64,000 nt of DNA from NCBI GenBank assembly GCA_019112895.1, contig DXIM01000010.1, positions 50,992 through 114,991 on the forward strand, read 5' to 3'. This stretch comes from Candidatus Stackebrandtia faecavium. GTDB taxonomy: Bacteria > Actinomycetota > Actinomycetes > Mycobacteriales > Micromonosporaceae. This document shows, piece by piece, positions 17,494-39,819 of this stretch (positions are counted from its first letter, which is position 1; each line of letters begins with the position of its first letter). Below the pieces are notes generated by a model, which worked only from the letters and a program-made list of their open reading frames with translations, had not been told where the DNA came from and searched no databases. The position numbers were made by a program, and so were the translations under genes.

Positions 17494-17523
17494 AGATTTG
17501 CACGCCCCAAATAACGCTACATA

Positions 17524-17535
17524 GTCATATATGAC
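17524..17535. promoter_or_regulatory. Perfect 12-bp palindrome upstream of the NB-ARC regulator
   Basis: gtcatatatgac in an AT-rich 90-bp intergenic gap. Confidence 0.35.
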
Positions 17536-17582
17536 CCTATGAATGATAGATCGCTAATGCAACACCTAGCGTCAAAGTGTCT

Positions 17583-22391: not shown

Positions 22392-22439
22392 GGCCACCTC
22401 CGGCGTAGCGCGTAAAACTGTGGAATTTGTAGCGGTGTA

Positions 22440-23354: not shown

Positions 23355-24197
23355 TTAAAACTCCTCGTAAACGGCCGGGTCTTGCTCCTCGGTGCGTCCG
23401 TCTTCGCGACCGAGGCCACTGATCGTGGCCATCTGTGCGGACGTCAGCTCAAAATCGAAGACGTCGATATTCTCCTCCTGCCGCGCGGGGTGCGCCGATT
23501 TCGGGATCGGAATCGAACCCAACTGGATGTGCCAACGCACAATCACCTGCGCCACCGACTTGCCGTGCTGTTGAGCGATGTCCACGACCTCGGGTTCTTT
23601 CAGCACCGCGCTGGCACGGCCCAGCGGACTCCACGACTGGGTGCGGATGCCGCGTACGTTGTCGGCGCCGCGTTGCCTCCGCTGCGGAAAGTACGGGTGC
23701 AGCTCGATCTGGTTGACGCTCGGTGCGACGCCGGTGTCGTCGATGAGCCGATCCAGGTGTTCGGGCAAGAAATTCGAGACCCCGATCGACCGCACGAGTC
23801 CCCGCTCCTTCGCGTCGATCAACGCTTCCCACGCCTGCGAGTACAAGTCCTTGCTCGGGTTCGGCCAATGGATCAGGTAAAGGTCATAGTAGTCGAGTCC
23901 GGTACGGTACAACGATTCTTCGATCGCGGTGCGGGCGGCCCGATAACGCTGGTGACGTCCCGGAAGCTTGGAACAGACCCGCATCTGGTCACGCGGCACC
24001 CCACATGTGCGCACGGCTTTGCCGACGGCGCCCTCGTTTTCATAGTTGAACGCCGAATCCAGTAGCCGGTAGCCGTAATCAACCGCGGAGTGAATGGCCT
24101 TGACACCTGCCTCGCCGCGCAGGTTGTACGTTCCGAAACCCATGACCGGAACGTGGATGCCGTCGTTTAGCTCGTATACAGGCATTTTGCGTGTCAT
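23355..24197 (-). CDS. Aldo/keto reductase (2,5-DKG reductase type)
   Basis: GFGTY, GYRLLDSAFNYENE, YDLYLIHWP, RSIGVSNF, NQIELHPY, IPKS; real start MTRKMP at 24197. Confidence 0.93.
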   Translation of the reverse strand: MTRKMPVYELNDGIHVPVMGFGTYNLRGEAGVKAIHSAVDYGYRLLDSAFNYENEGAVGKAVRTCGVPRDQMRVCSKLPGRHQRYRAARTAIEESLYRTGLDYYDLYLIHWPNPSKDLYSQAWEALIDAKERGLVRSIGVSNFLPEHLDRLIDDTGVAPSVNQIELHPYFPQRRQRGADNVRGIRTQSWSPLGRASAVLKEPEVVDIAQQHGKSVAQVIVRWHIQLGSIPIPKSAHPARQEENIDVFDFELTSAQMATISGLGREDGRTEEQDPAVYEEF

Positions 24198-24258
24198 GGC
24201 CCCCATGGTAGGAGCTACGAACCCAATATTTTCTGCCTTAGACGCATCCACGTTCGCG

Positions 24259-25518
24259 CTATGCGGGCTGTCGGTGCCGCTGGATTGCCAGCTCACCGCT
24301 GACGTGGAAGTCGCGCGATGTCGCCACGATCGCGTCCTCAACTTCACGGGATGTACGGCCACGGAACCGGAAGCGTCCGCCGACATGTTCGTAATACGCA
24401 TCGGCCGCCGGCAGGATTTCGCCCGGCCGAAGCAACGCCTCTGCGTACGGTCCCGGTACACGCCCCACCATCGACGTGGCATGAGTGATGCGGCACGGCC
24501 GCTGGGTGGGTGCCGGGGCCAACAACCAGCCGGCCACGTCCGTTCCGGGAGCGGGGGCGACGGCATCAATGGAGCGCGGCCACGGCAGGGCGCGCTGGCC
24601 GGCCAGCAAACGAAACGCCGACTCCATGAGGTCGTAACCGTGCACCTCGCGCCACAGGTACGGGATCTCGGCGCCACCGACACGAGCGCCCACTTCCAGG
24701 AAGGCGCACGACCCCGTGACACGGTCGACGAACAGTTCAAGATGGAACACGACCGGTTTACGGCTCAGCGCCCGCATCACGCCGGTCGAAAACGCCGTGA
24801 TGCTGCGCATCAGGTCGGGATCGTCTTCTTCGACCGAACCGAGCGTATCGCCGGTCCGAAAACCCAAGCAGTTGTTGACATAACGCGAGGCCCGCAATGG
24901 TCCCATCGTCGTACCGTCGAAGTAGCCGTCCACATGGTAGATCTGGCGCCCGTCGAATGCCTGAACGAGGTGGGGTTCTCCTTCCGCGAATTCGAGACCG
25001 GCACATTCGCTGGGACCATCCACTTTGATGACGCCGGCGCTGGAGCTGCCCGCGCACGGTTTCACGACGACCGGCCAGCCGTGATCTCTACCGAACTCGA
25101 CGACGTCGTGTGGGTGACGCACAGGCGCGTGGGCCGGAACCGCCAGACCCGCCCTCGATACGAGACCCGCCATGACGAGCTTGTCGCGGAACGGAATGAC
25201 ATCGTCAATGTCAGGACCGGGGCATCCCCATTGCTGACGCAATTGTGCACCGACAAGAAGGTCGTCTTCCTTCAACGCGATGATCGCTTCCGGGCGGCCC
25301 TGATTCTCGGCCAGGCGCTTCACGGCATCAGCCACCGAAGGTAGATCGTCGGTAGCGTCCACAATCGCGACTTCGGCTGCGCTGGCCGGCAACGATGGCG
25401 CGCCGACTTCGGTGGTCACATAGCTGACGGCGTAACGCGAATGGTCCACGTAGCGTTCGTAGTGCGCATAGTCGGCCAACCAACGGTGAACGATCACCAT
25501 GTGTGGGCGTGCAGCCAT
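24259..25518 (-). CDS. ATP-grasp ligase (amino-acid ligase-like)
   Basis: FRDKLVM, VVVKP..GSSSAGV, YHVDG, VFHLELF, FLEVGARVGGA; RBS ggagga before ATG at 25518. Confidence 0.88.
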   Translation of the reverse strand: MAARPHMVIVHRWLADYAHYERYVDHSRYAVSYVTTEVGAPSLPASAAEVAIVDATDDLPSVADAVKRLAENQGRPEAIIALKEDDLLVGAQLRQQWGCPGPDIDDVIPFRDKLVMAGLVSRAGLAVPAHAPVRHPHDVVEFGRDHGWPVVVKPCAGSSSAGVIKVDGPSECAGLEFAEGEPHLVQAFDGRQIYHVDGYFDGTTMGPLRASRYVNNCLGFRTGDTLGSVEEDDPDLMRSITAFSTGVMRALSRKPVVFHLELFVDRVTGSCAFLEVGARVGGAEIPYLWREVHGYDLMESAFRLLAGQRALPWPRSIDAVAPAPGTDVAGWLLAPAPTQRPCRITHATSMVGRVPGPYAEALLRPGEILPAADAYYEHVGGRFRFRGRTSREVEDAIVATSRDFHVSGELAIQRHRQPA

Positions 25519-26774
25519 AACAGCTCCTCCCCCACCTCGTAGAAGTCCGGACCATCCAAATAGCGCACGGTGCCGAAGTCCCGCATCACGACTTCCTCCA
25601 CCGAGTCGGCCAGGTTCACCACGAGCGGACACGACATGTCGTCGACGGTGCGTCGAAGCTGGCCGCCCTCCGGAACCAGCATGCGGATGTCGTGCAGGCT
25701 CTCCAATTCGCGCAGACGAGACATCTTCGGGTAGGACCGCAGCGGCGCCTCAATGTGCGACACGGTCATCGCCGACACGAAATGCTTCGTCAGTCGGTAG
25801 TCGTTCTTCCAGCGCGCGGCGAAACGATCCGGATCCGTGTACGCGTCGACGATCCATTCCAGTTGGGCTTCGCCGATGCACTGCTGCGAGTAGTAAGGAA
25901 TGTCGAGCCCTGCCATACGCGCCGCGGCCTCGACCAGGCACGGTCCGGTCGGGGTCATCTTGATCTCCAGATGCGAGGCGCCGTGCGACACGCCAAGCGC
26001 GTCGAGGACGTTGGCCGCATACGGCAGGAGACGGTCCTGCACCTCACCGCACTTGGGCAGGAGTCGGATTCCCGTGGTGAGGTCGACGATCCCGTTGGCC
26101 GAGATCTTCTCGTATTTCCAGATGTCCGTAACATGATGCTGGCCGTCGCGACTCACCGAATCCACGATGTATTCGCCGCCGGCAAGGTATTCCTGAGCCA
26201 CGACCGCCTCGTTGCGTGCCGAGAACACGCTGTCGGACGCCAGGATCGAATGATATGCAGCCACCGATTCCTCTGGTGTGTCACAGAAGGCGACGCCGTC
26301 GCCGGCCGCACTGCGGATCGGCTTGACCACGACCCGACCGCCAATGTCGGCGTGCCACTGCGCCAACTGCTGAGGCGACGACACCAACAACTGGGCGGTG
26401 GCGCGCAAGCCTGCGGCCCGCACGGTCTCCATCTGCACGTATTTATCGCGCCGGGCGACGCTGTAGCCGGTGCCGTTGGTCAACAGCCCCATAGCCTCGC
26501 TGAGTTGGTCGGTCAGCTCGACCCCGCTTTCGCCTCCGGCAATGACCGCCTCGGGAGCGTACGGCTCCAACTGCGCCATAGTCGCGTTGATATCGCCGTC
26601 ATGCACAATGTTGACCGCGTACGGCGACAGATCGAAATCGGATCGGTACACCAACGGGGTTTCCGGTGTACTTTGGACCCTGATGACGTCGTACCCGGCT
26701 TTATGGAAATGCGGTGCCAGACGCCGCGTCGGCGAGTAGGCGTCGACCACGACGACATACTTTTTCGTTCTCAT
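25494..26774 (-). CDS. ATP-grasp ligase (NikS/L-amino-acid ligase-like)
   Basis: MRTKKYVVVVDAYSP, RRDKYVQ, VVVKPIRSAAGDGV, QEYLAGGEYIVD, HLEIKMT, VEAAAR. Confidence 0.88.
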   Translation of the reverse strand: MRTKKYVVVVDAYSPTRRLAPHFHKAGYDVIRVQSTPETPLVYRSDFDLSPYAVNIVHDGDINATMAQLEPYAPEAVIAGGESGVELTDQLSEAMGLLTNGTGYSVARRDKYVQMETVRAAGLRATAQLLVSSPQQLAQWHADIGGRVVVKPIRSAAGDGVAFCDTPEESVAAYHSILASDSVFSARNEAVVAQEYLAGGEYIVDSVSRDGQHHVTDIWKYEKISANGIVDLTTGIRLLPKCGEVQDRLLPYAANVLDALGVSHGASHLEIKMTPTGPCLVEAAARMAGLDIPYYSQQCIGEAQLEWIVDAYTDPDRFAARWKNDYRLTKHFVSAMTVSHIEAPLRSYPKMSRLRELESLHDIRMLVPEGGQLRRTVDDMSCPLVVNLADSVEEVVMRDFGTVRYLDGPDFYEVGEELLWLHAHTW

Positions 26775-26827
26775 AACGGACCCTTCACCTTCAACGCGAT
26801 TGCCATCCGCCCAAACATGACCAATCG

Positions 26828-26893
26828 CGCTACAGATTCGCTGCAGATCGACCGCACGTCGGTGTCCAGCGCTTTTACAGCGGATCTGTAGCG
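26828..26893. promoter_or_regulatory. Putative SARP-type binding repeats in a divergent promoter
   Basis: 18-bp inverted repeat (16/18 match) with 11-bp periodicity on both strands: cgct-acagatt-cgct-gcagatc-gacc-gcacgtc (+) and cgct-acagatc-cgct-gtaaaag-cgct-ggacacc (-). Confidence 0.55.
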
Positions 26894-26955
26894 GGCGTTG
26901 GAAAGCTCGAGTTGCTCCCCTTTCGGCAGGGGCCACGCAACTATCGAAACGGTGA

Positions 26956-27957
26956 ATGATGTCCAACAATGAAAGCACGCTACGGCGCATCATCTGGCTC
27001 TTCCCAGACCGGGAATCGACCCGCACGCAGGCAAAATGGAGCGGGGCGTTTTGGGAGACCTATGCGCAGATCGCCAACGATATGGGGCTGTCCTTCAAGC
27101 GCGTAGCCCCCGAAGCGGTGGTGGTCGATGCCTTGAACCCACAGGATCCGAAGTTCTATATCGACGGCGAACGCGTCACGCCGCACGACACGGTCTTCAT
27201 CTCGACCCCGTACACATTGCCGTACCAGACGGTGGATGCGTTCAATCAGTTCACTTTGTACGCTGTGCTGGAGGAAGCCGGATTCTATCTTCCACACCCG
27301 ACGGACATGGCGGCTGTCGGCAACGACAAGCTGGCCACGTTGCTGCGTTTCCGGGACTGCCCGGTACCGCCGGTACCGACGGTCCGCATCGGCACCGGCC
27401 GTGACCTGCTGTACGACGAGTACGAAGTCGCGATCGAGGACCTTCCCTACCCTGCTTTCACCAAGCCCGCCGGCTGGTGCGCGTCACGCGGCATCAACCT
27501 TGCGCGCGACGCCCACGACGTGCGGGGATTGCTCAGCCTGGCACAGGGTGGGGACACGACCATGGTGTTGCAACCGTTCTTGGGCGACAACACCGCCGAT
27601 TACCGCGTCTTCATGATCGACGGTAAGCCACACACCGTCATGGTGCGCGCGTCCGGCGACGGCGCCATCTATCCACAATTCACCACCGGCGCCACCATGT
27701 GGTTCTGTCCGCTCCCGGAGGAACTGTCCGAGGCGATGTCGTGGATCGCCAAGAAGCTGCCGGTCCCGTTCGCCTGCGTCGACTTCCTTCACGACGGCGA
27801 GAAGTTCTGGTTCTCCGAGATCGAAATGGACGGCGGGATTCTGTGCCCCGATCCGTCCGACCCTCAAGCCGTGGCCACTCAGCATTCCATCATTCGGGAT
27901 CGCTTCGAGGCCTATCGCACCCGTCACCAGGCGTTCCTTCAGGAGGTTAAAGCATGA
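26956..27957 (+). CDS. ATP-grasp fold protein (RimK/GshB-like)
   Basis: NDKLATL, FTKPAGWCASRGI, VLQPFLG, DYRVFMIDG, DFLHDG...EIE. Confidence 0.8.
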   Translation: MMSNNESTLRRIIWLFPDRESTRTQAKWSGAFWETYAQIANDMGLSFKRVAPEAVVVDALNPQDPKFYIDGERVTPHDTVFISTPYTLPYQTVDAFNQFTLYAVLEEAGFYLPHPTDMAAVGNDKLATLLRFRDCPVPPVPTVRIGTGRDLLYDEYEVAIEDLPYPAFTKPAGWCASRGINLARDAHDVRGLLSLAQGGDTTMVLQPFLGDNTADYRVFMIDGKPHTVMVRASGDGAIYPQFTTGATMWFCPLPEELSEAMSWIAKKLPVPFACVDFLHDGEKFWFSEIEMDGGILCPDPSDPQAVATQHSIIRDRFEAYRTRHQAFLQEVKA

Positions 27958-29171
27958 CCGGTTTCTATTCGTCCGGACCGATATCGATCGACATCCCCCG
28001 ATCCACATTGGCCAGGCTGCGTTCCGTCCCGACTCTGGCGTCGCGATACGAAGGCATCGTCGCCATCGACAGCCCCGAAGATCTCATCCATGCGCCCATC
28101 ATGGTCAAAGACGACCTGACCGCAGCCGTTGAATATTTGCGCCCCAAAGCACATCGTGGCGCGACGTGGACGTTCCAAAGCGGCGGCAGCACCGGCGTGC
28201 CGAAACTCGGCTACGCCCCTACCGGCCTCTACATGGACGAGGTCTATCAGCAGTGGAAACCGTTGGGGCCCAACGATGTTTTCGCCAACTGTTGGGGCGC
28301 CGGCAAGATGTGGGGCGCCCATTACCTCGTCAACGCGTACGCCGACCTGACCGGCTGCACAGGCATCAGTCTCGGCGCCATGGACCGCAGCGAATACGAC
28401 ACGTGGCTGGAGTTCGCACTCAACCGTCAGGTGACGTCGATAGGGGGCACACCCAGTGTGCTGCGCCCCCTGTTCGGCTATGCCCGCGACAACGGGGTGA
28501 AACTGCCCGACCTGCGAAGTGTGCTGTTCCTGGGCGAAGCCTGGAACCCTGGGCTGGAAGCCGATGTGCCGGCGGTCGCGCCGCACGCCCAACGCTGGGG
28601 CCTGTACGGCAGCACCGAGACGTGGGTTGCCGGAACCAACACTCCGAACTGCGCCGCCGACACCTGGCACCTGATCCCGTCGCAACTAGTCCACATCGGT
28701 GAGGACCAGCTGATCGACTTCACCTCACTCAAGCCGCACGGCTTGAACCCATTGCTGCGGTACCAAACCGGCGACGCTGGTGAATGGGTCAGCTGCACCT
28801 GCGGCGAACCCGGTCGCGCCCTTCGCATCCTCGGTCGGCGTGACGAGAACACAATGTTTCGCGGGATCTTGTTCAATACCGACCAGTTCGTCGACGAGGT
28901 TTTGGGCGAGCCCGGAGTCATGCAGGCCCAGACGGTCATCACGACGCACGAGGCCCGCGGCGAAACCTGCGAGGTACTGGTGGTGCCGACGAACGACGCG
29001 CCCGCAGACCTCACCGATCGCATACATAAACGCATCCTGAGCTCCGCCTACGGGCACACGACCGCGTTCCACCGCGACCCCACGTGCTTGACGGTCAGCA
29101 CCGTGGAGGCGCTCATCGCTAATCCGCGCACCGGCAAGACTTCCAACCTTGTTCGTCGGCAGGCGGCATGA
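27954..29171 (+). CDS. Phenylacetate-CoA ligase (PaaK)-family adenylate-forming enzyme
   Basis: QSGGSTGVPK, YGSTET, PLLRYQTGDAG..C.CG, ILGRRDE. Confidence 0.85.
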   Translation: MTGFYSSGPISIDIPRSTLARLRSVPTLASRYEGIVAIDSPEDLIHAPIMVKDDLTAAVEYLRPKAHRGATWTFQSGGSTGVPKLGYAPTGLYMDEVYQQWKPLGPNDVFANCWGAGKMWGAHYLVNAYADLTGCTGISLGAMDRSEYDTWLEFALNRQVTSIGGTPSVLRPLFGYARDNGVKLPDLRSVLFLGEAWNPGLEADVPAVAPHAQRWGLYGSTETWVAGTNTPNCAADTWHLIPSQLVHIGEDQLIDFTSLKPHGLNPLLRYQTGDAGEWVSCTCGEPGRALRILGRRDENTMFRGILFNTDQFVDEVLGEPGVMQAQTVITTHEARGETCEVLVVPTNDAPADLTDRIHKRILSSAYGHTTAFHRDPTCLTVSTVEALIANPRTGKTSNLVRRQAA

Positions 29172-30469
29172 CAAAAGCATCCGAAAAGGTCCGGCTCGGC
29201 CGCGACTTCAACCTCTTTTGGACGGGACAGTCCGTCAGCTTTATCGGCGACAAGATCAACCTGTTCGTGGTTCCTACGATCATGATTTTGTTCCTCGACG
29301 CCACGTCGTTCCAGGTCGGCCTGGTGAGCATGGCGCAGTGGGTGGCGATCCCGCTGCTCAGCCTCGTCGCCGGCGTCCTCGTCGACCGTTGGGACCTGCG
29401 TTGGACGCTCATCTGGTGTGACCTGATCCGGTTCGTGGCCATCGCTATTCTTCCGGTGGCTTACTGGATGGGCTTCCTGTCCGTCGGTCTGGTCTTCGCC
29501 AGCGTCGCGACCGTCAGCGCTGCGGCGGTGTTCTTCAATATCGGATACACGACGTCGATCGCGGCACTCGTGCCGGATAAAAACCGGGTGCGGGCGTATT
29601 CGCGGCTCGAAGGCAGCCGCACCACATCCGAAGTCATCGGCCCGGCGATCGCCAGTGGACTGTATTCGTTGCTGAGCGTCGTGTCGCTGTTCGCCAACGC
29701 CGTCGCGTACCTGTTCTCGGCGGCCACGATCGGCGCGATGAAACCCCACGGCACCCGCACCGCCGCATCAGTTCCGATGTGGACGCGCTTGAAGCGCGGC
29801 GTGCAACTCAACCTGAAGGACCCGGTGCTGCGCGGCACGGTCCTCGGCGCGTTCCTGCTGAACTCGGGCGGCCCCATCTTCGTAACCGTCATGCCCATCC
29901 TGGCTTACCGAGGCTTGAACATGTCGGTGGGCATGCTCGGTCTGGTCATGTCGGGCGCCGCCGTCGTCGCCGTGCTCGGTGCGGTCGTGGCACAGCGCGT
30001 CAGTGAACGGATCGGACCGGCGCGGATGTCGCCGATCTCGCTGTTCATGCACTGTTTCGTCGGCCTCGGTGTCCTACTCGCCCCGTGGCTGCCGGCCGCG
30101 CTGGTCCTATTCGTCACTCAGTCCCTGTACGGACTGTTCATGGTGTGGTTCAACGTGAGTACCGCCGCGATCCGTCTCGCCCGGGTTCCGGCCGAGGACC
30201 AGGCCGTGTCTCAGGCAGCGTTTAGGACCATCACCTGGGGCATCATCCCGTTCGCCGCACTCATCGGTGGAGTCTTGGTCGAAGCGTTGACGGGTCCTTT
30301 GGGCATTCTCAATGCCGCCAAGTACACGATGGTCGGTGCGACTCTCATCGGTGTCCTCGTCGGCTGGATCCCGTTGGCGCCCACCCATCGGCGCCTTGAA
30401 CGCGAGAAAGCGGAGCAGAAGGAAGCCGAAATGTTGGCCGCGGAGGAACCGGAGGTGACTCCGGCATGA
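29168..30469 (+). CDS. MFS transporter (DHA3-like exporter)
   Basis: RDFNLFWTGQSVSFIGD, AGVLVDRWDLR, GPAIAS; about 12 TM segments. Confidence 0.92.
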   Translation: MTKASEKVRLGRDFNLFWTGQSVSFIGDKINLFVVPTIMILFLDATSFQVGLVSMAQWVAIPLLSLVAGVLVDRWDLRWTLIWCDLIRFVAIAILPVAYWMGFLSVGLVFASVATVSAAAVFFNIGYTTSIAALVPDKNRVRAYSRLEGSRTTSEVIGPAIASGLYSLLSVVSLFANAVAYLFSAATIGAMKPHGTRTAASVPMWTRLKRGVQLNLKDPVLRGTVLGAFLLNSGGPIFVTVMPILAYRGLNMSVGMLGLVMSGAAVVAVLGAVVAQRVSERIGPARMSPISLFMHCFVGLGVLLAPWLPAALVLFVTQSLYGLFMVWFNVSTAAIRLARVPAEDQAVSQAAFRTITWGIIPFAALIGGVLVEALTGPLGILNAAKYTMVGATLIGVLVGWIPLAPTHRRLEREKAEQKEAEMLAAEEPEVTPA

Positions 30470-31341
30470 ATCCTGTCGACGAGCCGCGCATGGTTATCAC
30501 GGGATGCTCCTCCGGTATCGGTTTGGGCACCGCGATTCTTGCGGCCCAACGCGGTTACCGAGTCATCGCGACCATGCGCGACCTGGGTCGCGCCGATGCG
30601 CTTCGGGAAGCGGCGCAAGCCGCCGGGGTGACTGTCGACGTCCAGCAGCTCGACGTGACCGATGAGCAGTCGATCGCGCGCTGCATGGACGAGGTGATAG
30701 CGGCCCACCAACGCATCGACGTGTTGGTCAATAACGCCGGCTCCGCCGGCACCGTACCGACAATCGAACAATGCGCGATGTCGCAGTATCGACGCGGTTT
30801 CGAGGTGAATTTCTTCGGCACGGTCGCGGTCACGAAAGCGGCGATGCCGCATCTGCGGGCCAGTGGCGGCAAGATCATCACGGTCGGCAGCACCCGCGGC
30901 ATCATCGCCCAGCCGTTCAACGAGAGTTATTCGGCAGCCAAGTTCGCGACCGCGGGCTTCTTCGAAGCGTTGGCGCCCACGGCCAAGAGCATGGGAGTGT
31001 CGGTGACGATGGTGGAGCCGGGCCCGGTGTTGGGTACTGCTTTCGCCGCTAACGCCGGCGGGTCTGCCGAATCCGTCACGCGGCAGTCCGGGCCGTACAC
31101 GCCGGTCCTTAAATCCTATCTGGATTGGTTTGGCCGTACGGACCACCCGGATGTGCAGACCGCCGACGAGATAGCCGAGGTCATTCTCGACACCGCCCAC
31201 GCGCCGTCACCACCGTTTCGGGTCCTGACTAGCCCTTGGGCGCGGGAATTCGCCGCGCGCAAACTCGTGGATCCCAGCGGCGGGAACGTGATCGCGATGA
31301 CGTCGGCGTGGCTGGCACCGCATGGAGGCGCGCAACCATGA
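30466..31341 (+). CDS. Short-chain dehydrogenase/reductase
   Basis: TGCSSGIG, LDVT, NNAG, YSAAK, VEPGPV. Confidence 0.93.
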   Translation: MNPVDEPRMVITGCSSGIGLGTAILAAQRGYRVIATMRDLGRADALREAAQAAGVTVDVQQLDVTDEQSIARCMDEVIAAHQRIDVLVNNAGSAGTVPTIEQCAMSQYRRGFEVNFFGTVAVTKAAMPHLRASGGKIITVGSTRGIIAQPFNESYSAAKFATAGFFEALAPTAKSMGVSVTMVEPGPVLGTAFAANAGGSAESVTRQSGPYTPVLKSYLDWFGRTDHPDVQTADEIAEVILDTAHAPSPPFRVLTSPWAREFAARKLVDPSGGNVIAMTSAWLAPHGGAQP

Positions 31342-33029
31342 ACATCACGACACAACTCGCGCCACGCACGGTTTTCGACGCCATCGCGCGACACGCACAG
31401 TCACAGGCAACCGCGGTAATCCATAACGGAATCGAGTGGACTTACGCTGAGCTTCTCGGGCGGGCCTACGCGCTCGCGCGCGTGCTCGGACCGAACCCTG
31501 GCCCGGTCGGCGTAGTCACTTCCCACTCGCCGAACACGATCGTCGCGTTGCTGGGAGTGTGGGCCGCCGGCGGCACGTACTGCCCGATAGATCCGGCTTT
31601 CCCGCAAGTGCGGCAGCAGGAAATGGTGGCCGCGGCCGAATGCACGAACCTCGTGCTCACCGAAAGCCACCAGGACTCACCCACCGATATTCACGCGATC
31701 GCGGTCCCAACCGAACAGTCACCACCGGTCGAGGCCGTCGGTTCCGCGGGGCCCGCCTACATCCTGTTCACCTCGGGGTCGACCGGTACACCAAAGCCTG
31801 TCGAGACGTCACACGTGGCGATCGCGGCCACGGTCGCCTCGCTTCGGGACCTGTTTGACGTCTCATTGGGCGACCGGGTGTTGCAGTTCGCGTCGTTGAA
31901 CTGGGATACATGTTTCGAAGAGATCCTGCCCACGTTGTCGGCGGGGGCGGCGGTCGTGTTCGACGACGACGCCCACACCGGTTCCTTCCCGCGTCTACTG
32001 CGGTTGTTGGCGCGACATCGGGTCACGGTAGCGGATCTGCCCACCGCGTATTGGCACGAGCTCGTGCGGTATCTGGACGACGAAGGCACGACGGTCCCCG
32101 ACTGCTTCAGGTTGATGATCATCGGCGGCGAAGCCGCCAGTCCGGCGCGGCTGCGGCAGTGGGACGCGCTCGGCAACGACCGGGTGCGGTTGTTGAACAC
32201 CTACGGCTGCACCGAGACCACGCTCATCACTCATGCTGCCGATCTGGGCTCCTTCGATACCGGCCCGGTGCCGATCGGTTACCCGTTGCCGCACGTGGTC
32301 CAGCACATTGATGACGGCGAACTCCTGATCGGTGGCCCCGCCCTGGCGACCGGTTACGTACACAACAACGCCGAAACGGACCGGAAGTTCGTGTGGCGCC
32401 AGGGACAGCGGTTCTTCCGCACCGGCGATGCCGTCACCATATCGCCCAGTGGCGCACTCATCCACAACGGACGCATCGATGCGGAGCTGAAGATTCGCGG
32501 CATCAAGGTCAACCCGGTCGAAGTGGAGGCGCTGATCGGCGCGCACCGGGACGTGTCCGCCGTCGCCGTCGTCGGTACGCAGCACGCCGGGCGCACCGCG
32601 CTGCTGGCGTACCTCGTGCCGGCCGACAACACCGACTCGAACGCGCTGGCCGCAACCGTTGCCCGCGACCTGCGGTCACGCGCGCCCAGTCATCTCGTGC
32701 CCGCACGAATCATCACTGTCGACGCGTTGGCCCACACGCCCAGCGGCAAGGTCGATCGGGCGCTCACCCATCGACGCCACACCTCGATTAGTCACTTAGG
32801 AGAAACAATGAACGTGGACGAAATGATCGACACTTTCCGTCGAGTGTTGGAAACCGACGACATCGGCGCCGACACGGATTTCTTCGAACTCGGCGGGGAC
32901 TCGCTCCTGGCCACTCGGGTTCTCAGCGCGATCGCTAAACGCAGCGGGATCGAACTCACCTTCGACGACTTCGTCGTCTCTCCGACCCCGAGCGCGTTGG
33001 TGAAACAGTTGGGACGTGCGCAGTCATGA
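31338..33029 (+). CDS. Stand-alone NRPS adenylation-thiolation (A-PCP) didomain
   Basis: YILFTSGSTGTPK, YGCTETT, FFRTGD, GRIDAELKIRG, SGKVDR; PCP motif FFELGGDSL. Confidence 0.93.
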   Translation: MNITTQLAPRTVFDAIARHAQSQATAVIHNGIEWTYAELLGRAYALARVLGPNPGPVGVVTSHSPNTIVALLGVWAAGGTYCPIDPAFPQVRQQEMVAAAECTNLVLTESHQDSPTDIHAIAVPTEQSPPVEAVGSAGPAYILFTSGSTGTPKPVETSHVAIAATVASLRDLFDVSLGDRVLQFASLNWDTCFEEILPTLSAGAAVVFDDDAHTGSFPRLLRLLARHRVTVADLPTAYWHELVRYLDDEGTTVPDCFRLMIIGGEAASPARLRQWDALGNDRVRLLNTYGCTETTLITHAADLGSFDTGPVPIGYPLPHVVQHIDDGELLIGGPALATGYVHNNAETDRKFVWRQGQRFFRTGDAVTISPSGALIHNGRIDAELKIRGIKVNPVEVEALIGAHRDVSAVAVVGTQHAGRTALLAYLVPADNTDSNALAATVARDLRSRAPSHLVPARIITVDALAHTPSGKVDRALTHRRHTSISHLGETMNVDEMIDTFRRVLETDDIGADTDFFELGGDSLLATRVLSAIAKRSGIELTFDDFVVSPTPSALVKQLGRAQS

Positions 33030-34357
33030 AGATCGTGGTAGTTGGCGCGGGACTGGCCGGCCTGACCGCCGCGCGACTGCTGCGTGACGCGGGAACCGAA
33101 GTCACCGTCGTGGAAGCGCGCGACAGGGTCGGCGGACGGACGCATGGCATAGAGGTGTCACCGGGTTCGTGGGTCGACGCGGGCGCCGCGTATTTGGGCG
33201 ATCGACACACGCAGCTGCTGGAGACGATGTCAGCGCTCGGCATCAAAACCGTCGCCACCGACATGGAAGGTGGGAGCCGGTTTGAGTTGAACGGCGACGC
33301 CGACACCGCGGATGGGCGTTTCCCGCCGCTCAACGCTGTCGCTCTCGGCGACCTGTTCGAGCACCTGGCTGATCTGACGTCCTCGATCCGGCCGGACGCG
33401 CCGTGGCTCACCCCCGATGCCGAAGCCTTGGACGCGACCACGGCACGGCAGTGGCTGGACGAACGCACCAATCATCCGGACGCGCAAGCGTTCTTCCCGC
33501 TTTTCCTCGGCGAAATGATGGCGGCGGCCCCGGAATCGATATCCGCGCTGCACATGGGCTTCTACCTGCGTTCCGGCGGAGGGATCCGCTACCTGAACGC
33601 GTTCGAGGGCGGGGCTCAACAGGACCGGGTCGACGGCGGGGCGCACCGCATCTGCGAGGGTCTGGCCGAGGGTCTGGATGTCCGGCTCGATTCGCCGGTG
33701 ACCGAGATCGACAATCGTCCGGATGGTGTCGTGGTGACGACGGCGCGGCAACGGTTCGACGCCGATGCCGTGATCGTCGCAGTGCCTCCGCGTGTGGCCG
33801 ACCGCATCGACATCCGGCCGAAACCGGCCACTTCCCGTTCCACTTCGCAGTCTGCGCCCGGGTGCGCCGTGAAGGTGCACTTGATCTACCCGTCCCCTGT
33901 GTGGCGCGAGCACGGTTTGTCGGGCTGGTCGGTCAACGCACATGGCCCACTGTTGTCCACTGTTGATGATTCTTCGGGAACCGGCGTCGGTGTCCTCACC
34001 GGATTCGTGACCGGCGACGAAGCACACCGTTTCTCGCAGCTGGACCGCCACACGCAACGCACGCAGGCGATCGACCAGGCACAACGTCTGTTCCCGTTCC
34101 TCGGTGAACCGACCGGTTTCCACGTCACCGACTGGTTGCGCGAAACCTACAGCAAGGGCTGTTACGCAGCCCTGTTCGGACCCGGCGATTGGACCGTGCT
34201 CGGTCCGAATCTCACCGCCCCACACCACCGGGTGTATTGGGCCGGAACCGAAACCAGCACCGAGTTCTATGGACTGATGGAAGGTGCGATCCGCAGCGGA
34301 CAGTCCGCGGCGGACCAAGTTATAGCTGCCCACCAAAAGGACGACCACCATGACTGA
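33026..34357 (+). CDS. Flavin monoamine oxidase family protein
   Basis: GAGLAG, EARDRVGGR, DAGAAYLG, YWAGTET, MEGAIRSG. Confidence 0.92.
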   Translation: MKIVVVGAGLAGLTAARLLRDAGTEVTVVEARDRVGGRTHGIEVSPGSWVDAGAAYLGDRHTQLLETMSALGIKTVATDMEGGSRFELNGDADTADGRFPPLNAVALGDLFEHLADLTSSIRPDAPWLTPDAEALDATTARQWLDERTNHPDAQAFFPLFLGEMMAAAPESISALHMGFYLRSGGGIRYLNAFEGGAQQDRVDGGAHRICEGLAEGLDVRLDSPVTEIDNRPDGVVVTTARQRFDADAVIVAVPPRVADRIDIRPKPATSRSTSQSAPGCAVKVHLIYPSPVWREHGLSGWSVNAHGPLLSTVDDSSGTGVGVLTGFVTGDEAHRFSQLDRHTQRTQAIDQAQRLFPFLGEPTGFHVTDWLRETYSKGCYAALFGPGDWTVLGPNLTAPHHRVYWAGTETSTEFYGLMEGAIRSGQSAADQVIAAHQKDDHHD

Positions 34358-36053
34358 CCGCTCCCCGTTGGCGCCGATCGAAGTACGCAAACGTTTCATG
34401 GACGAACCGCTGCTCGGCGCCGGCAATTTCCTCGATTACGCCCTCGAAGGCAACCCGAACCGTTCGGTACCGTACGCGTTCACCCACCACGTCGATCACA
34501 CCGGTGCGGTCTCGATGCGCGGGCACAGCCTCGAACAGCTCGCTGCGCAACGCGACCGGTACGCCAGCTGGTACCACGCCAACGGCGTGCGCCCGCACCA
34601 ACCGGTCGGCGTGGTGGTCCCGGACGGTCTCGAACCGCTCATCCATTTCTTCGCGTTGACCGCGCTGGGAGCGATCCCGACGTTGATCAACGACGCGATG
34701 CCGCACGACGTCATGGTGCGGTACCTCAACCATGTCGGGGTCGTTGGTGTCGTTGCCGACGACACGACGAAACTGGCCGCCGCGTACCGGGCTGATCCGC
34801 AAAGCCGGCCACGTTTCATCGCCCTGTCGTACGAGGTGCAGTCCTGCGACACCTCGCAGACATCGCTTCCCGACCAGTACCCGTACCGGCACCAGCCCGA
34901 AGATGTTGTCGGTCTGATCCATTCGTCCGGAACGACCGGCACACCTAAAGCCAGCAAGCTGGGGCACCGGCAGTTTTGGGAAGGTAAGCAGCCGCGAATG
35001 GTGCGGTTCCCCACCGACGAAGACGACAAACTGTATTCGCTGATGCCGCACACGCACGCCGGCGGCTTGAGCTATTTCCTGACCACGACGCTGCTGGGCC
35101 TACCGACGATGGTCGCCGGCGATTGGCGCCGCGCCACGGTCGAGCCCGTCATGGAGGCGTTTCAACCGACCATGATGGCCTCATTCCCGCGCACCTTCGT
35201 TGAGCTCGCCACCGGCGAACTGCCCACGAAGGGGGCGGCGAACGTGCATTCGTGGTTTAACACGGGCGACTCCGCCCATTATGGGCATATTCGGAGGCTC
35301 GTCACCTTGGGTCGGCGCCCTGCCGGCCTCATCAAGCCGTGGCTGCTACCGCAGGACCATCCCGCCGACGCCGACATTCCCGGATCGCAATACATCGACG
35401 GCCTCGGCTCGACCGAGATGGGGATGGCGTTGTTCGGCCAGGTCACCACGCCCGAGTCCGAACGCGACGACCGGTGCGTCGGTCGACCGAGCGAGGTTGT
35501 CGACGACGCCACGATTCTCGACCCGGACGGTAACGAACTTCCGGACGGCACCGTGGGCATGTTGGCAGTCAAAAGCGTCTCGCTGACACCCGGATACTGG
35601 AACAACGAACGGTTGACCGCATCCTTCCGGCTCAACGGATACTGGCTCACCGGCGACATCGCCTACCGCAAGCCGGACGGTCGTTTCTACCACCTCGACC
35701 GCACGGTCGACGTGATCGACACCGAAACCGGGCCGGTGTACAGCCTGCTGATGGAGGAAGTGTTGTTGGCCGACTGCAGCGCCCAGATCCTCGACTGTTC
35801 TGTCGTGGGCGTCGCCGCCGGTTCCGGAGTCGGGATGGCGCCAGTCGCGGTCGTCAAGCTGCAAAGCGACGCACTCAATCTCACGCAGGAGGAGGTCCTG
35901 GAGCTGGCGAACGCGAAGCTCGCCGAAGCTGGACTGGAGAAACTGCATGCGGTGCGCATCGCCCACGGCGAGAAAGATTTCCCGCTCGGCCCGACCGGCA
36001 AAGTCCTCAAGCGACAAGTTCGCACGCAGATGGCGACCGTGTTGACCGGATGA
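34350..36053 (+). CDS. Class I adenylate-forming enzyme (acyl-CoA/amide synthetase-like)
   Basis: HSSGTTGTPK, GLGSTEMG, WLTGDIAY, LDRTVD, TGKVLKR. Confidence 0.9.
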   Translation: MTDRSPLAPIEVRKRFMDEPLLGAGNFLDYALEGNPNRSVPYAFTHHVDHTGAVSMRGHSLEQLAAQRDRYASWYHANGVRPHQPVGVVVPDGLEPLIHFFALTALGAIPTLINDAMPHDVMVRYLNHVGVVGVVADDTTKLAAAYRADPQSRPRFIALSYEVQSCDTSQTSLPDQYPYRHQPEDVVGLIHSSGTTGTPKASKLGHRQFWEGKQPRMVRFPTDEDDKLYSLMPHTHAGGLSYFLTTTLLGLPTMVAGDWRRATVEPVMEAFQPTMMASFPRTFVELATGELPTKGAANVHSWFNTGDSAHYGHIRRLVTLGRRPAGLIKPWLLPQDHPADADIPGSQYIDGLGSTEMGMALFGQVTTPESERDDRCVGRPSEVVDDATILDPDGNELPDGTVGMLAVKSVSLTPGYWNNERLTASFRLNGYWLTGDIAYRKPDGRFYHLDRTVDVIDTETGPVYSLLMEEVLLADCSAQILDCSVVGVAAGSGVGMAPVAVVKLQSDALNLTQEEVLELANAKLAEAGLEKLHAVRIAHGEKDFPLGPTGKVLKRQVRTQMATVLTG

Positions 36054-36068
36054 CCAAAGATCGCACTT

Positions 36069-36101
36069 TGGGGGTGGGAGCCGTTACTGCTCCCACCCCC
36101 A
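36069..36101. terminator. Bidirectional terminator-like hairpin
   Basis: tgggggtgggagc-cgttact-gctcccaccccca, 13-bp stem between convergent genes. Confidence 0.8.
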
Positions 36102-36105
36102 GAAA

Positions 36106-36564
36106 TCAGGCCCGACCGTCCACGTGTTTGTGTCGATCGGCGAACGGGTTGCCGGACAGCATCATCGATTGGCCACGGAATTCGGCCACCATCTGCGGAT
36201 CCGCCGACTCTTCCCCCACTCGTGACACGGTCACGTCGTAGATGCCACTCCTGCCCTGCCGCGACCGTTGCCGGGCTTGCGCCAGCAACACGTCATCGAC
36301 GTCGACGGGCTGGAAGAACGACACTGTGGCGTGTTGGGCCACCGTCACCGGACCGTGACTGTTGGCCGCATACGCGAAAGCGGCATCGGCCAACAGGAAC
36401 AGGTATCCGCCATGCGCGACGCCGTGACCATTGAGCATGGACCGCGCCACCGTCATACGTAGTTGCGCATATCCAACGTCGACTTCGTCGAGGCGGATCC
36501 CCACACTTTGGCAGGCGAAGTCCCGGCGAAACATTTCCTCGGCGCGGGGATTGACCACGTGCAC
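36106..36564 (-). CDS. paaI: PaaI-type (hydroxy)phenylacetyl-CoA thioesterase
   Basis: MLNGHGVAHGGYLFLLADAAFAYAANS, GRSGIYDVTV, AEFRGQS. Confidence 0.88.
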   Translation of the reverse strand: MHVVNPRAEEMFRRDFACQSVGIRLDEVDVGYAQLRMTVARSMLNGHGVAHGGYLFLLADAAFAYAANSHGPVTVAQHATVSFFQPVDVDDVLLAQARQRSRQGRSGIYDVTVSRVGEESADPQMVAEFRGQSMMLSGNPFADRHKHVDGRA

Positions 36565-36569
36565 TCCTT

Positions 36570-39335
36570 TTACGCGATGGGCATGAACAAGGTTGCGGGT
36601 AAAGACCGCTTCGCCTCAGACTCGAGCACTGTGGACCACATGGCGCGGAACACGGTGTCTCCTCTTCGCTGTGACGGGATGCGTGCCGGCATGACCGTCG
36701 GCTCCAGCGCCGCCACTGGGCCCGCCACCGCACCAATGTCGATCATGTTGCGCGCCATGGTGCGGTCCAGCACTTGCACACGCGGGTTCGTCAGGAAGCC
36801 GGCGACCTCCTCGCGCGCGGCCGCGATCTTCGCGCCCGTTATCGCCCTGGCGCCTTGCATCGAGATCGCAAACGTCCGGCTGCCTTTGCCGATCGTCGCT
36901 TCGCACAGGATCATCGCCTGGGCGTAACGCTCCCGCGCCAGGTCGCCACGGTTGGCGGCGACGCAGACTTCCGCGTGAGCCAAAAGCGCCAGCGAATACG
37001 ACATCGGTTCCCGGCCGGGTTCCAAGTCTTGAAGCGCCTGTTCGATCTCCTTATTGAGGTCGGTGCCGGAACCCTTCTGCCTCCGCAAATACCCCAAGGC
37101 GAAGCGCGTCAGGCCGAGCAAGCGGGACTCGCCGGGATCGAGCAGCACCGTGGCCCGCATGAGATGCTCGGCGGCGTCGGCGAGCCGGACCTGTTCGCGC
37201 ATGAGCACGATCCCCAGTCGCGCCCGCGCCTCGCCGACGGCGTGCCAATCGTGCAGCTGGACGGCGCACTGCAGCCCCAGCTCGCAGGCCGACTCCGTCA
37301 GACGGATCCCGCAGGAATCGGCCAGCGTTAGCAGCCGCCGTCCGACCTCGTAGTCGCCCCGGTCGTGTGTCCACTCCAGGATCGCACCGATGTTGGCTTC
37401 CTCGGCGGCCATGAACGCTTCGGCACCATCGCCCCGTGCACCCAGCGGCAACCATTCGGGCTGCTCCACAATGAGAGGCTGCGGCGACACGGCATCCATG
37501 CTGCGTGACACGGCATCGAACACCATCAGGTACCAGCGCAGAATGCGGCGCTCGACCGCTTCGCGGTCGGGCAGGGTCTCTGCCCGGCGCCGCGCGTAAC
37601 GATCCACCAGTTCGTGTACCCAGTACCGATCTTGGGCGGTTTCGACAACGAGGTTGGCGGCGGTCAAGGCGTCCAGCAGCTGCCGTGCACGTACGAGCGA
37701 TATCCCGGCAGTCGCCGCGACGAGTTGAAGGCTCACGGTCGCCCCCGGAAGCAGGCCGAGCTGTGAAAACAGTCGCGCTACGGCAGGGTCGAGGTCGGAG
37801 ATGGCGGCGTCAAGCGCCGCGGCTACGGTCCGCTGATCATCGTCGACCGACAGTTGCTCCACCCGCGCACCGACTTCATCCATGAAGGACCACAGCGTTT
37901 GGTGTGGGCGCGTAGCGAGGGCTGCGGTCACGATGCGAAGCATCAACGGCCAGCCGCCACACAACACCGCCAGCTCATTCGCACCACCGTGCGCCAGCCG
38001 TCGACTGCCGAGTCCAGACTCCAGTAGCGCCAACGATGCTTCGGTATCCAACGGCTCGAGCGTCAACGTCGACGTCGAATGCTGCACCGCCAGCGACGGC
38101 AGCTGTTTGCGGCAGGTCGCCACGATTTGACTCTTCGACGTCGGGGGCGCCAAAGCGAGAACCTGCGCCGCCGAATCCGCGTCATCGACCACGATCAATA
38201 CTTCGCGCTGACACATCACGGTGCGATACAGGCAGATCAGCTCGTGCGGGTCGGAAGGGATGTTTTTGCTGTCTACACCGAGCGAAAACAGCACGGTCCG
38301 CACCGCGGCACTGCGGGACAAGGGTTCCTGTGTACCGGACCCACCGAGGTCGACGAAAATCTGCCCGTCGCGGAACCTCTCGGCGACGTCGTGTGCCCAC
38401 GCTACGGCAAGCGCGGTTTTGCCCAGTCCGCCTGCTCCCGAGATCACCAACAGTTTCGGTTCCCGGTTCGGCGACGCGATGGCGGCAGTCAGTTGGGCGC
38501 ATTCGCGGGTTCTGCCGACGAAACGGCTAGGCCGTGCCGGCAGTTGCGCGGGCCTGGACACGGCCCAGCTGTCGGCTTCGGTGGCTTTCGGGGCGTCGTC
38601 GGTCTCGCACGGGGGCGGCAGTTGTTCGTCGCGCAGGATCTTGGCGTGCAGCTCTTGCAGGTCGACACAGGGGTCGCTGCCGTACCGGTCGGCAAGGCGG
38701 TATCGCAGGGACACATAGCTTTGTAGCGCGTCGGCGCGGCGGCTGCTGCGGCACAGCGCCACCATGAGTTGCCCATGTAGGCGCTCCCGCACAGGGAACA
38801 GGGAGGTCGCCTCGATGAGTGAGTCCACAATCTCTCGATGTCGTCCGAGACGTAGCTCCACGTCGCATAGTTCTTCGAATTGACTGACGCGAAGCTCCGA
38901 CAGTCGGGTACGGGCGCCTTCGAGCCCGGGTGCCGTGCCACCGTCGAGCGGATCGCCGCGCCACAGCTTGCTCGCTTCGCGCAGGATCGGCGCCGACTCG
39001 GCCGACGTTCGGGCATCACGCGCTTCGCGCGTGAGTTTCTCGAGTCGGTTGACGTCACAACTGGATTCGGGGAGTTTCAGCACGTAACCCGGGTGACGGG
39101 TTTCGACGGCTGTACCGAGCTTGCGACGCAGCGAAGAGACGAGGCCCTGGACCCGCGAGCGCGGCGCGGCCGGTGGGCGTTCTCCCCAGAGGCGGTCGAT
39201 GATGCGGTCGGTCGATAGGACTTTACCGACAGACAAAGCAAGAAGCGCGCACAAGTTTCTCTCAAGCGGCGCCAGGCGGAGATTCTCTCCGTCTTTGTAG
39301 ACCTCAATTGGTCCGAGCAGCAATACTTCCAGCAA
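36570..39335 (-). CDS. AfsR/SARP-family regulator (OmpR-type wHTH-BTAD-NB-ARC-TPR-like)
   Basis: LLGPIEV, PGYVL, LWRGDPL, RERL..QLM.AL, GAGGLGKT, VVDDA; probable TTG start at 39335 after agagg. Confidence 0.9.
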   Translation of the reverse strand: MLEVLLLGPIEVYKDGENLRLAPLERNLCALLALSVGKVLSTDRIIDRLWGERPPAAPRSRVQGLVSSLRRKLGTAVETRHPGYVLKLPESSCDVNRLEKLTREARDARTSAESAPILREASKLWRGDPLDGGTAPGLEGARTRLSELRVSQFEELCDVELRLGRHREIVDSLIEATSLFPVRERLHGQLMVALCRSSRRADALQSYVSLRYRLADRYGSDPCVDLQELHAKILRDEQLPPPCETDDAPKATEADSWAVSRPAQLPARPSRFVGRTRECAQLTAAIASPNREPKLLVISGAGGLGKTALAVAWAHDVAERFRDGQIFVDLGGSGTQEPLSRSAAVRTVLFSLGVDSKNIPSDPHELICLYRTVMCQREVLIVVDDADSAAQVLALAPPTSKSQIVATCRKQLPSLAVQHSTSTLTLEPLDTEASLALLESGLGSRRLAHGGANELAVLCGGWPLMLRIVTAALATRPHQTLWSFMDEVGARVEQLSVDDDQRTVAAALDAAISDLDPAVARLFSQLGLLPGATVSLQLVAATAGISLVRARQLLDALTAANLVVETAQDRYWVHELVDRYARRRAETLPDREAVERRILRWYLMVFDAVSRSMDAVSPQPLIVEQPEWLPLGARGDGAEAFMAAEEANIGAILEWTHDRGDYEVGRRLLTLADSCGIRLTESACELGLQCAVQLHDWHAVGEARARLGIVLMREQVRLADAAEHLMRATVLLDPGESRLLGLTRFALGYLRRQKGSGTDLNKEIEQALQDLEPGREPMSYSLALLAHAEVCVAANRGDLARERYAQAMILCEATIGKGSRTFAISMQGARAITGAKIAAAREEVAGFLTNPRVQVLDRTMARNMIDIGAVAGPVAALEPTVMPARIPSQRRGDTVFRAMWSTVLESEAKRSLPATLFMPIA

Positions 39336-39819
39336 GGCAGTACCTCTGTTAGGTCTGGATTTTCGGGCACGCGCGACGCCCAAGGCGAACGTTCGCCAAT
39401 CCGCAACCGGCGAGGGATGGTGTGTAGTCGATGATCGTCTGGCTGCGAAACAGGCGCCAACATCTGCAACATTACTGCCAAAGCGCCGCCACATCCTGGG
39501 GCCTTCAGCCAAGCAATATTGTCGATTCGAAGCTATTAATACCGGATTAGCGGTTGACTTGACGGGGCAATCAGGGATATGACGGCCGACACCGGTTTAT
39601 GATGCACTGCAATGCTTCCCGATCATCAAACCTTACAGACTTTACAAACCACCAGGCCAGCCATCGATGTCCGTAATTCTCTAATGCCATAAATGGACAC
39701 GTTTCCTGCATTTAACCACCCGACGGAATTCCCTCATAGAACATACCTAAAGATATGGTTGCAATACCGTATAGATACACACCGTATCTGATATGAACGA
39801 TTCCAATTAATGGGCTGGA

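Follow-up and report, generated by a model that had tools for sequence, protein, structure and literature searches.

A widely conserved actinomycete gene cluster with a diazotase-family enzyme, probably for a lysine-derived pseudopeptide

A stretch of 64,000 nucleotides from the genome of Candidatus Stackebrandtia faecavium (contig DXIM01000010.1, positions 50,992 to 114,991; hereafter the window) carries a gene cluster in which ATP-grasp ligases, adenylating enzymes, a carrier protein and a flavin amine oxidase are encoded side by side. It is a real natural-product gene cluster and a member of a widely conserved, uncharacterised family. The reading that we favour, with somewhat better than even confidence, is that the cluster is controlled by a SARP regulator, operates independently of nonribosomal peptide synthetases (NRPSs), and makes a small pseudopeptide derived from lysine or beta-lysine, with a nitrite-dependent step during assembly. 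The substrate of its ANL enzyme, the role of its oxidase and its product are deduced here from sequence and gene context. Genes were called from open reading frames (ORFs) guided by GC content at third codon positions (GC3) and from family scans (Pfam, NCBIfam), which recovered, at or near the positions given, every gene listed in an earlier reading of this DNA (the original prediction). That reading had described a biosynthetic cluster free of condensation domains with a small pseudopeptide or acyl-amine product. This is still the most likely account in outline, with ATP-grasp enzymes, one of them DdaF-like, standing beside adenylating enzymes.

The ANL enzyme (34350-36053, plus strand) carries most of the argument for nitrite. 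Its best NCBIfam match is NF058622, the model for the 3-aminoavenalumate diazotase AvaA6 (340.8 bits, 1.2e-101), and the next model scores 152.9 bits. A sequence search of the PDB returned only four entries below 1e-20, namely 9xb8, 8ztz, 9bq0 and 8tf7, and no structure of a non-diazotase ANL enzyme reached that value. Entry 9BQ0 is Tri17 (PMC12207350), 8ztz was taken to be CmaA6, since the published residues fall into place when its chain numbering is shifted by +16, and 9xb8 is probably Mco01_40450, as judged from residue numbering. Mutagenesis has identified His224, Phe267 and Lys533 of CmaA6, equivalent to H236, F279 and K527 of Mco01_40450, as the residues that bind nitrous acid (PMC12207350, PMC13674236). 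With the +16 offset applied, His236, Phe279 and Lys551 of the window ANL align to this triad, and Arg216 aligns to the arginine described as carboxylate-binding or as part of the entrance (R204 in CmaA6, R216 in Mco01_40450). The window enzyme thus shares with type Ib diazotases both the His/Phe/Lys nitrite site and the carboxylate arginine, and none of these four residues varies among 44 orthologues. Judged by eye from the alignments, it is about one-third identical over its full length to members of the type Ib group, to which AvaA6, CmaA6, SpiA7, Mco01_40450 and Tri17 belong. By sequence, the ANL belongs to the type Ib ATP-dependent diazotase/N-nitrosylase family and is predicted to activate nitrite. 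The original prediction had called it a second acyl-adenylate ligase; its relatives are nitrite-activating enzymes instead of ordinary acyl ligases. All six bond-activating enzymes counted in that prediction are present, but taking them as six amide formers overstates the number of ligation steps because the sixth is this diazotase-family ANL.

The ANL protein was compared with one genome per species, and genes were counted at each locus from tblastn tables. Orthologues 64-73% identical were found at 45 actinomycete loci (at least 45 species). Most are in Kitasatospora, and the others are in Streptomyces, Catenulispora, Phytomonospora, Micromonospora, Streptosporangium and Actinophytocola, in one metagenome-assembled genome (MAG) of the Nocardioidaceae, and in two MAGs of unclassified Actinomycetota. 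When proteins are clustered at 90% identity, more than 120 clusters contain ANL orthologues at least 69% identical, all annotated generically. An adenylation-carrier (A-PCP) unit and a flavin amine oxidase occur at all 45 loci, the oxidase always directly upstream of the ANL, which is itself found at 44. ATP-grasp ligase C, the PaaK-like ligase, the MFS transporter and the SDR are each present at 43, a KamA-family aminomutase at 39, a second PaaK-like gene at 38, the PaaI gene at 31 within the flanks fetched, and the SARP gene at nine. The order A-(PCP)-oxidase-ANL is constant, and the remaining genes are rearranged from locus to locus. Of 46 family members, 43 encode the A domain and the PCP in separate ORFs, for example at L002, L033 and most Kitasatospora and Streptomyces loci, and the window and two other loci have them fused. 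A minimal arrangement is that of S. adustus (L033), which consists of MFS, an ATP-grasp gene of the L-amino-acid ligase (LAL) type, A, PCP, oxidase, ANL, creE, creD, KamA and PaaI. In this genome, a type I polyketide synthase module (KS-AT-DH; L033:18171-21701) begins about 400 bp past PaaI.

The window ANL and its orthologues form their own clade, with 65-74% identity among members, apart from the characterised type Ib diazotases. Unlike the latter, they are never found beside genes for 3-amino-4-hydroxybenzoate (3,4-AHBA), p-aminobenzoate (PABA), anthranilate or hydrazinoacetate. They are instead always coupled to an A-PCP with a lysine code and to an oxidase of the monoamine oxidase (MAO) type, and usually to KamA, a coupling that implies an aliphatic, lysine-derived amine as substrate. 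Most copies also lack a nearby aspartate-nitrosuccinate (ANS) pathway, in contrast to type Ib diazotase pathways.

Evidence for a lysine or beta-lysine precursor comes from the A domain and from the aminomutase. The code of the window A-PCP (31338-33029, plus strand; PF00501, PF13193 and PF00550 matches), read from motif anchors, is DTEDMITLIK, and the consensus of 46 family sequences is DTED[V/M]ITLIK. The lysine code of ScoA is DTEDVGTVVK (10.1101/121228). By sequence, the window code is of the lysine type, a class in which alpha- and beta-lysine are indistinguishable. The carrier has the motif GGDS, whose serine is residue 522. The KamA-family radical-SAM aminomutase adjoins the ANL at 39 of the 45 loci and best matches the lysine 2,3-aminomutase model TIGR03820 (5e-48). 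This tie to an aminomutase across the family, and the tie to creE/creD in some genomes, were overlooked by the original prediction. In Ca. S. faecavium itself, another contig, C117, encodes a KamA homologue that has the radical-SAM motif CPQYCGHC and shares 65-68% identity with the cluster-borne enzymes; it would be the sole candidate source of beta-lysine for the cluster in this genome. It stands beside genes resembling 3,5-diaminohexanoate dehydrogenase (kdd) and the lysine 5,6-aminomutase alpha subunit (kamD/E) at C117:15844-21645, and, judged from these neighbours, the C117 locus looks like one of the lysine-fermentation type.

Stand-alone A-PCP units paired with a lysine 2,3-aminomutase, as at most loci of the window family, are familiar from VioO/VioP of viomycin and CmnO/CmnP of capreomycin biosynthesis. 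Those proteins supply an enzyme of the condensation type, by which an NRPS peptide is decorated, whereas the window cluster has neither a C domain nor an NRPS. A closer parallel in assembly logic is dapdiamide, in which the stand-alone ligases DdaF (ATP-grasp) and DdaG (ANL) form amides without condensation domains, as proposed for the window cluster. The building blocks differ, the window cluster has a PCP, an amine oxidase and a nitrite-type ANL in addition, and its closest DdaF-like protein, ATP-grasp ligase B, is no DdaF equivalog, scoring 210.9 bits where the cut-off is 840.

The question of nitrite supply was addressed with creD and creE queries from the neg1 region of K. purpeofusca, namely the nitrosuccinate lyase (NF052556, 808 bits, over cut-off) and its creE-like neighbour. 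Homologues of creE and creD lie inside or beside the cluster at three loci (L033, L034 and L045), an adjacency that recalls type Ib diazotase pathways. In two genomes, the pair is inserted between ANL and KamA, and in L045 it lies beside PaaI. The creD-like gene of L033 scores 580 bits against NF052556. At L045, which belongs to a MAG, both the grA orthologue and the creD-like gene are split (G003:C6:549063-550341; L045:17353-18696) and no complete ANL turned up, features that could stem from faulty assembly or from decay of this copy.

Several observations weigh against a nitrite-dependent step, and against the lysine-based reading more generally. To our knowledge, the substrates of the characterised type I diazotases are all aromatic amines or a hydrazone, and none is an aliphatic amine. 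The window ANL stays well under the AvaA6 equivalog cut-off of 975 bits and is a relative of that enzyme, not an equivalog, and the His and Lys of the triad are also residues of ordinary ANL enzymes (PMC12207350). The KamA-family matches fall short of equivalog cut-offs, which leaves room for a basic amino acid other than lysine as substrate, and the window copy has neither an in-cluster KamA nor a second PaaK-like gene, unlike most of its relatives. In the genome of Ca. S. faecavium (3.38 Mb, 99% complete), no CreD, CreE or narG was found, assimilatory nitrate reductase not having been searched for, and the only Lyase_1 genes are fumC, argH and purB. A molybdopterin-type ORF lies at the start of contig C117. 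A creD-like gene is present anywhere in only 12 of 21 cluster-bearing genomes tested, so that a dedicated nitrite source is often missing.

These points could be explained if the cluster were the same in all other respects but its ANL, after diverging from the diazotase lineage, were an ordinary ligase that activates carboxylates; the product would then be a (beta-)lysine pseudopeptide that contains no nitrite-derived nitrogen. The absence of creD, creE and narG from the host genome, the nine cluster-bearing genomes that lack a creD-like gene, the score under the AvaA6 cut-off and the generality of the His and Lys would all fit. However, the Phe "steric wall" and indeed the whole triad are invariant in the 44 orthologues, no non-diazotase ANL structure is found below 1e-20, and two genomes have creE/creD placed between ANL and KamA, with the pair next to the cluster in a third. 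Moreover, trace nitrite in the medium supported about 9% of the negamycin yield in K. purpeofusca (10.1101/2025.07.31.667836). Since trace nitrite sufficed in part in that organism, the absence of the ANS pathway weakens the case for nitrite use but does not exclude it. We regard a purely carboxylate-activating ANL as unlikely, although it is the most serious of the alternatives. Under the favoured nitrite-dependent reading, nitrite for the window cluster would come from outside the cluster, because its own genome lacks creD, creE and narG.

The same absences raise a second alternative, that the window copy is a decaying or non-functional remnant that has lost its aminomutase, has no nitrite supply and makes no product in this host. 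KamA and the second PaaK-like gene, present at 39 and 38 of the 45 loci, are indeed missing from the window, the ANS pathway is absent from the genome, and the genome is small (3.4 Mb). Against this, all 12 cluster genes are intact ORFs with high GC3 and tight ATGA coupling. The seven plus-strand genes between 26956 and 36053 meet at six junctions, five with 4-nt ATGA overlaps and one with an 8-nt overlap, as the original prediction had noted in part, and the arrangement indicates translational coupling. The KamA homologue on C117 could replace the missing gene, the SARP gene and its putative repeat site are intact, and an architecture that lacks KamA and carries the ATP-grasp genes grA and grB recurs at L040 and L045, so that a stable variant seems likelier than decay. 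A remnant is therefore improbable. In the same genome, another ATP-grasp gene pair, with 28-30% identity to grA, lies at C39:8815-12039, and NRPS-type adenylation domains are encoded on contig C120. The small genome thus has further secondary-metabolite loci. Among named organisms, Stackebrandtia has the nearest match (76-78%) to the PntB encoded in the window, and the host is accordingly a probable relative of the Glycomycetales with a small genome.

The genes grA and grB also bear on where the cluster ends. Together they are confined to the window and to L001, L040 and L045, and these loci lack the second PaaK-like gene; on both grounds the four constitute a sub-variant, and grA/grB are variant-specific accessory genes outside the universal core. 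In genomes G001, G002 and G003, grA orthologues 62-68% identical adjoin grB, the pair stands divergently beside grC, and no aldo-keto reductase, LanM-like or JmjC gene is found beyond grA. A cassette for a peptide that is made on the ribosome and modified after translation (RiPP) lies next to the cluster in the window, and grA and grB are co-directional with, and immediately upstream of, its three precursor genes and LanM-like gene. This layout could suggest that grA, grB and the aldo-keto reductase belong to the RiPP cassette as part of a RiPP/non-ribosomal hybrid. Given the conserved divergent placement of grA/grB beside grC without those genes in G001 to G003, and the absence of a RiPP cassette from all 45 loci, we consider such a hybrid highly improbable and set the left boundary at ATP-grasp ligase A. 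The aldo-keto reductase and the RiPP cassette were rejected as cluster parts by synteny and are unrelated neighbours. The aldo-keto reductase gene (23355-24206, minus strand), directly downstream of grA, has a 47% identical paralogue on contig C167 and is conserved neither with the pseudopeptide cluster nor, in the loci examined, with a RiPP cassette.

On the favoured reading, biosynthesis may proceed as follows. A lysine 2,3-aminomutase, here the C117 homologue, would make beta-lysine, which the A domain would adenylate and load onto the PCP. The MAO-type oxidase would then act on one primary amine, in the simplest case the epsilon-amine, of the unit in its tethered or free form, giving an imine or aldehyde that can cyclise onto the beta-amine. 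The ANL would form AMP-nitrite from ATP and nitrite and transfer NO+ to an amine of the intermediate, which would create an N-N bond of the N-nitroso or diazo kind or else turn the amine into a diazonium leaving group, and the SDR would set the oxidation state. The RimK-like and PaaK-family ligases would attach amino-acid or acyl units via amide bonds, and in the window variant the two DdaF-like ATP-grasp ligases encoded by grA and grB would also add units. Finally, the PaaI thioesterase would free the PCP-bound acid, and the MFS pump would export the product.

The enzymes proposed for these steps were characterised as far as family scans and predicted structures allow. Two ATP-grasp genes lie on the minus strand. 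ATP-grasp ligase A (grA, 24259-25518) shows NCBIfam ATP-grasp matches down to 8e-10; its ORF is open to 25632, and its start is probably the ATG at 25518, which is preceded by GGAGG. ATP-grasp ligase B (grB, 25494-26774; PF13535, 8.9e-11) is of the DdaF/L-amino-acid-ligase type, scoring 331.9 bits against NF005543, over its cut-off, and matching the DdaF model at 2.8e-62. Its ATG at 26774 is preceded by GAAGGTGAAGGG. The two proteins are 25% identical (E 4e-10) and are paralogues. An ORF at 25692-26891 on the plus strand was rejected as spurious, the true gene at that place being on the minus strand. The plus-strand operon opens with ATP-grasp ligase C (grC, 26956-27957), a RimK/LysX-like protein (rimK_fam TIGR00768, 7.4e-12) whose AlphaFold2 (AF2) model (pLDDT 81) gives RimK, ArgX/LysX and PruB as top Foldseek matches with probability 1.0. 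The next gene (27954-29171) encodes a 405-residue PaaK-family ATP-dependent ligase with a weak sequence signal, a partial PF00501 match at 9.5e-10. Its AF2 model (pLDDT 81) has PaaK1/PaaK2, BT_0428, NatL2, AjiA1 and ClxA as top Foldseek matches, and it is probably an amide- or ester-forming enzyme. Direct PDB sequence searches with grC and the PaaK-like ligase gave nothing useful. The benzoxazole enzymes NatL2, AjiA1 and ClxA share the PaaK fold with the window ligase; it is, however, only 16-20% identical to them, and aminohydroxybenzoate genes are absent nearby.

The remainder of the operon consists of an MFS transporter (29168-30469; PF07690, 1.8e-30), by its family a probable exporter of the product, a classical SDR (30466-31341; PF00106, 2.3e-45), the A-PCP gene, the flavin amine oxidase (33026-34357; PF01593, 6.1e-70) and the ANL gene. 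The nearest PDB relatives of the oxidase are a bacterial MAO (8p84, 3.7e-74), MAO-A/B, cyclohexylamine oxidase and putrescine oxidase. It was therefore classed as of the MAO/putrescine-oxidase type, and an L-amino-acid oxidase type was rejected. Between the convergent ANL and PaaI genes lies a GC-rich 12-bp hairpin, GGGGGTGGGAGC-N7-GCTCCCACCCCC (36070-36100), which was read from the sequence and is probably a bidirectional terminator. The PaaI-type hotdog thioesterase (36106-36564, minus strand; TIGR02286, 125.8 bits against a cut-off of 118.9) is a probable enzyme for release or editing of the PCP thioester. Condensation (PF00668), KS and thioesterase-domain matches were found in no cluster protein by the family scans, in agreement with the earlier description.

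The MAO-type oxidase, the SDR, the PaaK-fold ligase and the PaaI thioesterase would also suit an operon for breaking down an amine or arylacetate, in which the oxidase gives an aldehyde, the aldehyde is converted to an acid, a PaaK-type ligase forms the CoA ester and PaaI proofreads. Such an operon would not be expected to include an A-PCP, three ATP-grasp ligases, a diazotase-family ANL, a drug-efflux-type MFS transporter and a SARP regulator, and the cluster has no aldehyde dehydrogenase. PaaA and PaaC of the phenylacetate catabolon match only contig C130 and nothing on the window contig (C18), which bears out the original view that the PaaK/PaaI pair stands outside that catabolon. In other genomes, the gene set co-occurs with KamA and with creE/creD, and the unit is kept in antibiotic-producing genera. 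We give a catabolic role almost no credence and retain the biosynthetic reading.

The SARP gene (36570-39512, minus strand; PF03704, 1.8e-34, with PF00931 and PF00486) encodes winged-helix, BTAD, NB-ARC and TPR regions and lies directly upstream of the PaaI gene on the same strand. It is part of the cluster, although the span given in the earlier account stops short of it, and the SARP-PaaI pair recurs in the same order at L001, L005, L009 and L027. The divergent promoter between grB and grC is 181 bp long and contains a tandem 11-nt repeat, CGCTACAGATT-CGCTGCAGATC (26828-26849), with an inverted copy 30 bp away that ends at 26893; the inverted repeat spans 16 nt and is 94% complementary. When the 22-nt tandem was sought in the genome with up to five substitutions, two close copies were found, both in this promoter (0 and 5 mismatches, the latter being the inverted arm), and the six other matches were all weak ones with five mismatches. 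Because the repeat is nearly confined to the divergent promoter, it fits binding by the adjacent SARP, and 26828-26893 is a probable SARP operator, judged from the letters of the promoter. A copy of the 11-nt repeat with one mismatch, CGCTACAAATT, occurs at 22424-22434 on the minus strand, just upstream of the start of the LanM-like gene. One-mismatch matches number 23 genome-wide, and this copy may be due to chance. Also beside the RiPP cassette is a STAND NTPase gene (16048-17553, minus strand) whose product shares 30% identity with the NB-ARC region of the SARP regulator; further paralogues are encoded on contigs C103, C49, C11 and C7.

No paper on this gene set came up in the literature searched on diazotases, ATP-grasp enzymes, amine oxidases, Kitasatospora, beta-lysine and nitrite, and no characterised match was found, consistent with the earlier description of the cluster as uncharacterised. 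The nearest known pathway in concept is that of negamycin in K. purpeofusca (creE/creD at neg1, together with neg2), which has in common with the proposed window pathway beta-lysine made by KamA, nitrite as nitrogen donor and an amide formed by an ATP-grasp enzyme. Its nitrite is supplied from a distant locus, and it shares the genus Kitasatospora with the window family. The N-N bond of negamycin is made by the heme enzyme NegJ of the KinJ family, and neg2 includes an N-methyltransferase, a lysine hydroxylase and kamA2 (10.1101/2025.07.31.667836, 10.1101/2025.05.27.656397). Identity with the negamycin cluster was considered and rejected; the genes of the window and of L019, the K. purpeofusca copy of the window family, all fall in other families, with no neg2-type set, NegJ itself not having been used as a query. 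L019 lies at 2.00 Mb of 8.87 Mb. The kamA1 locus of this species (KPATCC21470_2073) is described as transcriptionally silent in the negamycin preprint, and from gene numbering and position L019 is probably that silent locus.

Our studies allow us to advance, more tentatively and at less than even confidence, a bolder proposal for the family. The ANL may be the first type I "diazotase" to act on an aliphatic, lysine-derived amine, working with the adjacent MAO-type oxidase and A-PCP. The family would then make a new and widespread class of beta-lysine pseudopeptides with a nitrite-derived N-N unit (N-nitroso, diazo or cyclic hydrazine) or with diazonium activation. Most Kitasatospora species would encode it and, under standard conditions, keep it silent, and many hosts would use nitrite from a source other than the ANS pathway. 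Genome mining for ATP-dependent diazotases has required a nearby creE (PMC13674236), and the family would largely have been missed by this filter because most copies have none. With at least 45 species and more than 120 clusters at 90% identity, it is among the most widely distributed groups of diazotase relatives. Enzymes capable of making N-N bonds or diazo groups are in demand, both for biocatalysis and as pointers to bioactive compounds. A testable system for nitrite activation on aliphatic amino acids is offered by the A-PCP, the MAO-type oxidase and the ANL together, and copies of the S. adustus type bring an in-cluster nitrite supply. The cluster family could thus lead to the product of a gene cluster found in most Kitasatospora genomes.

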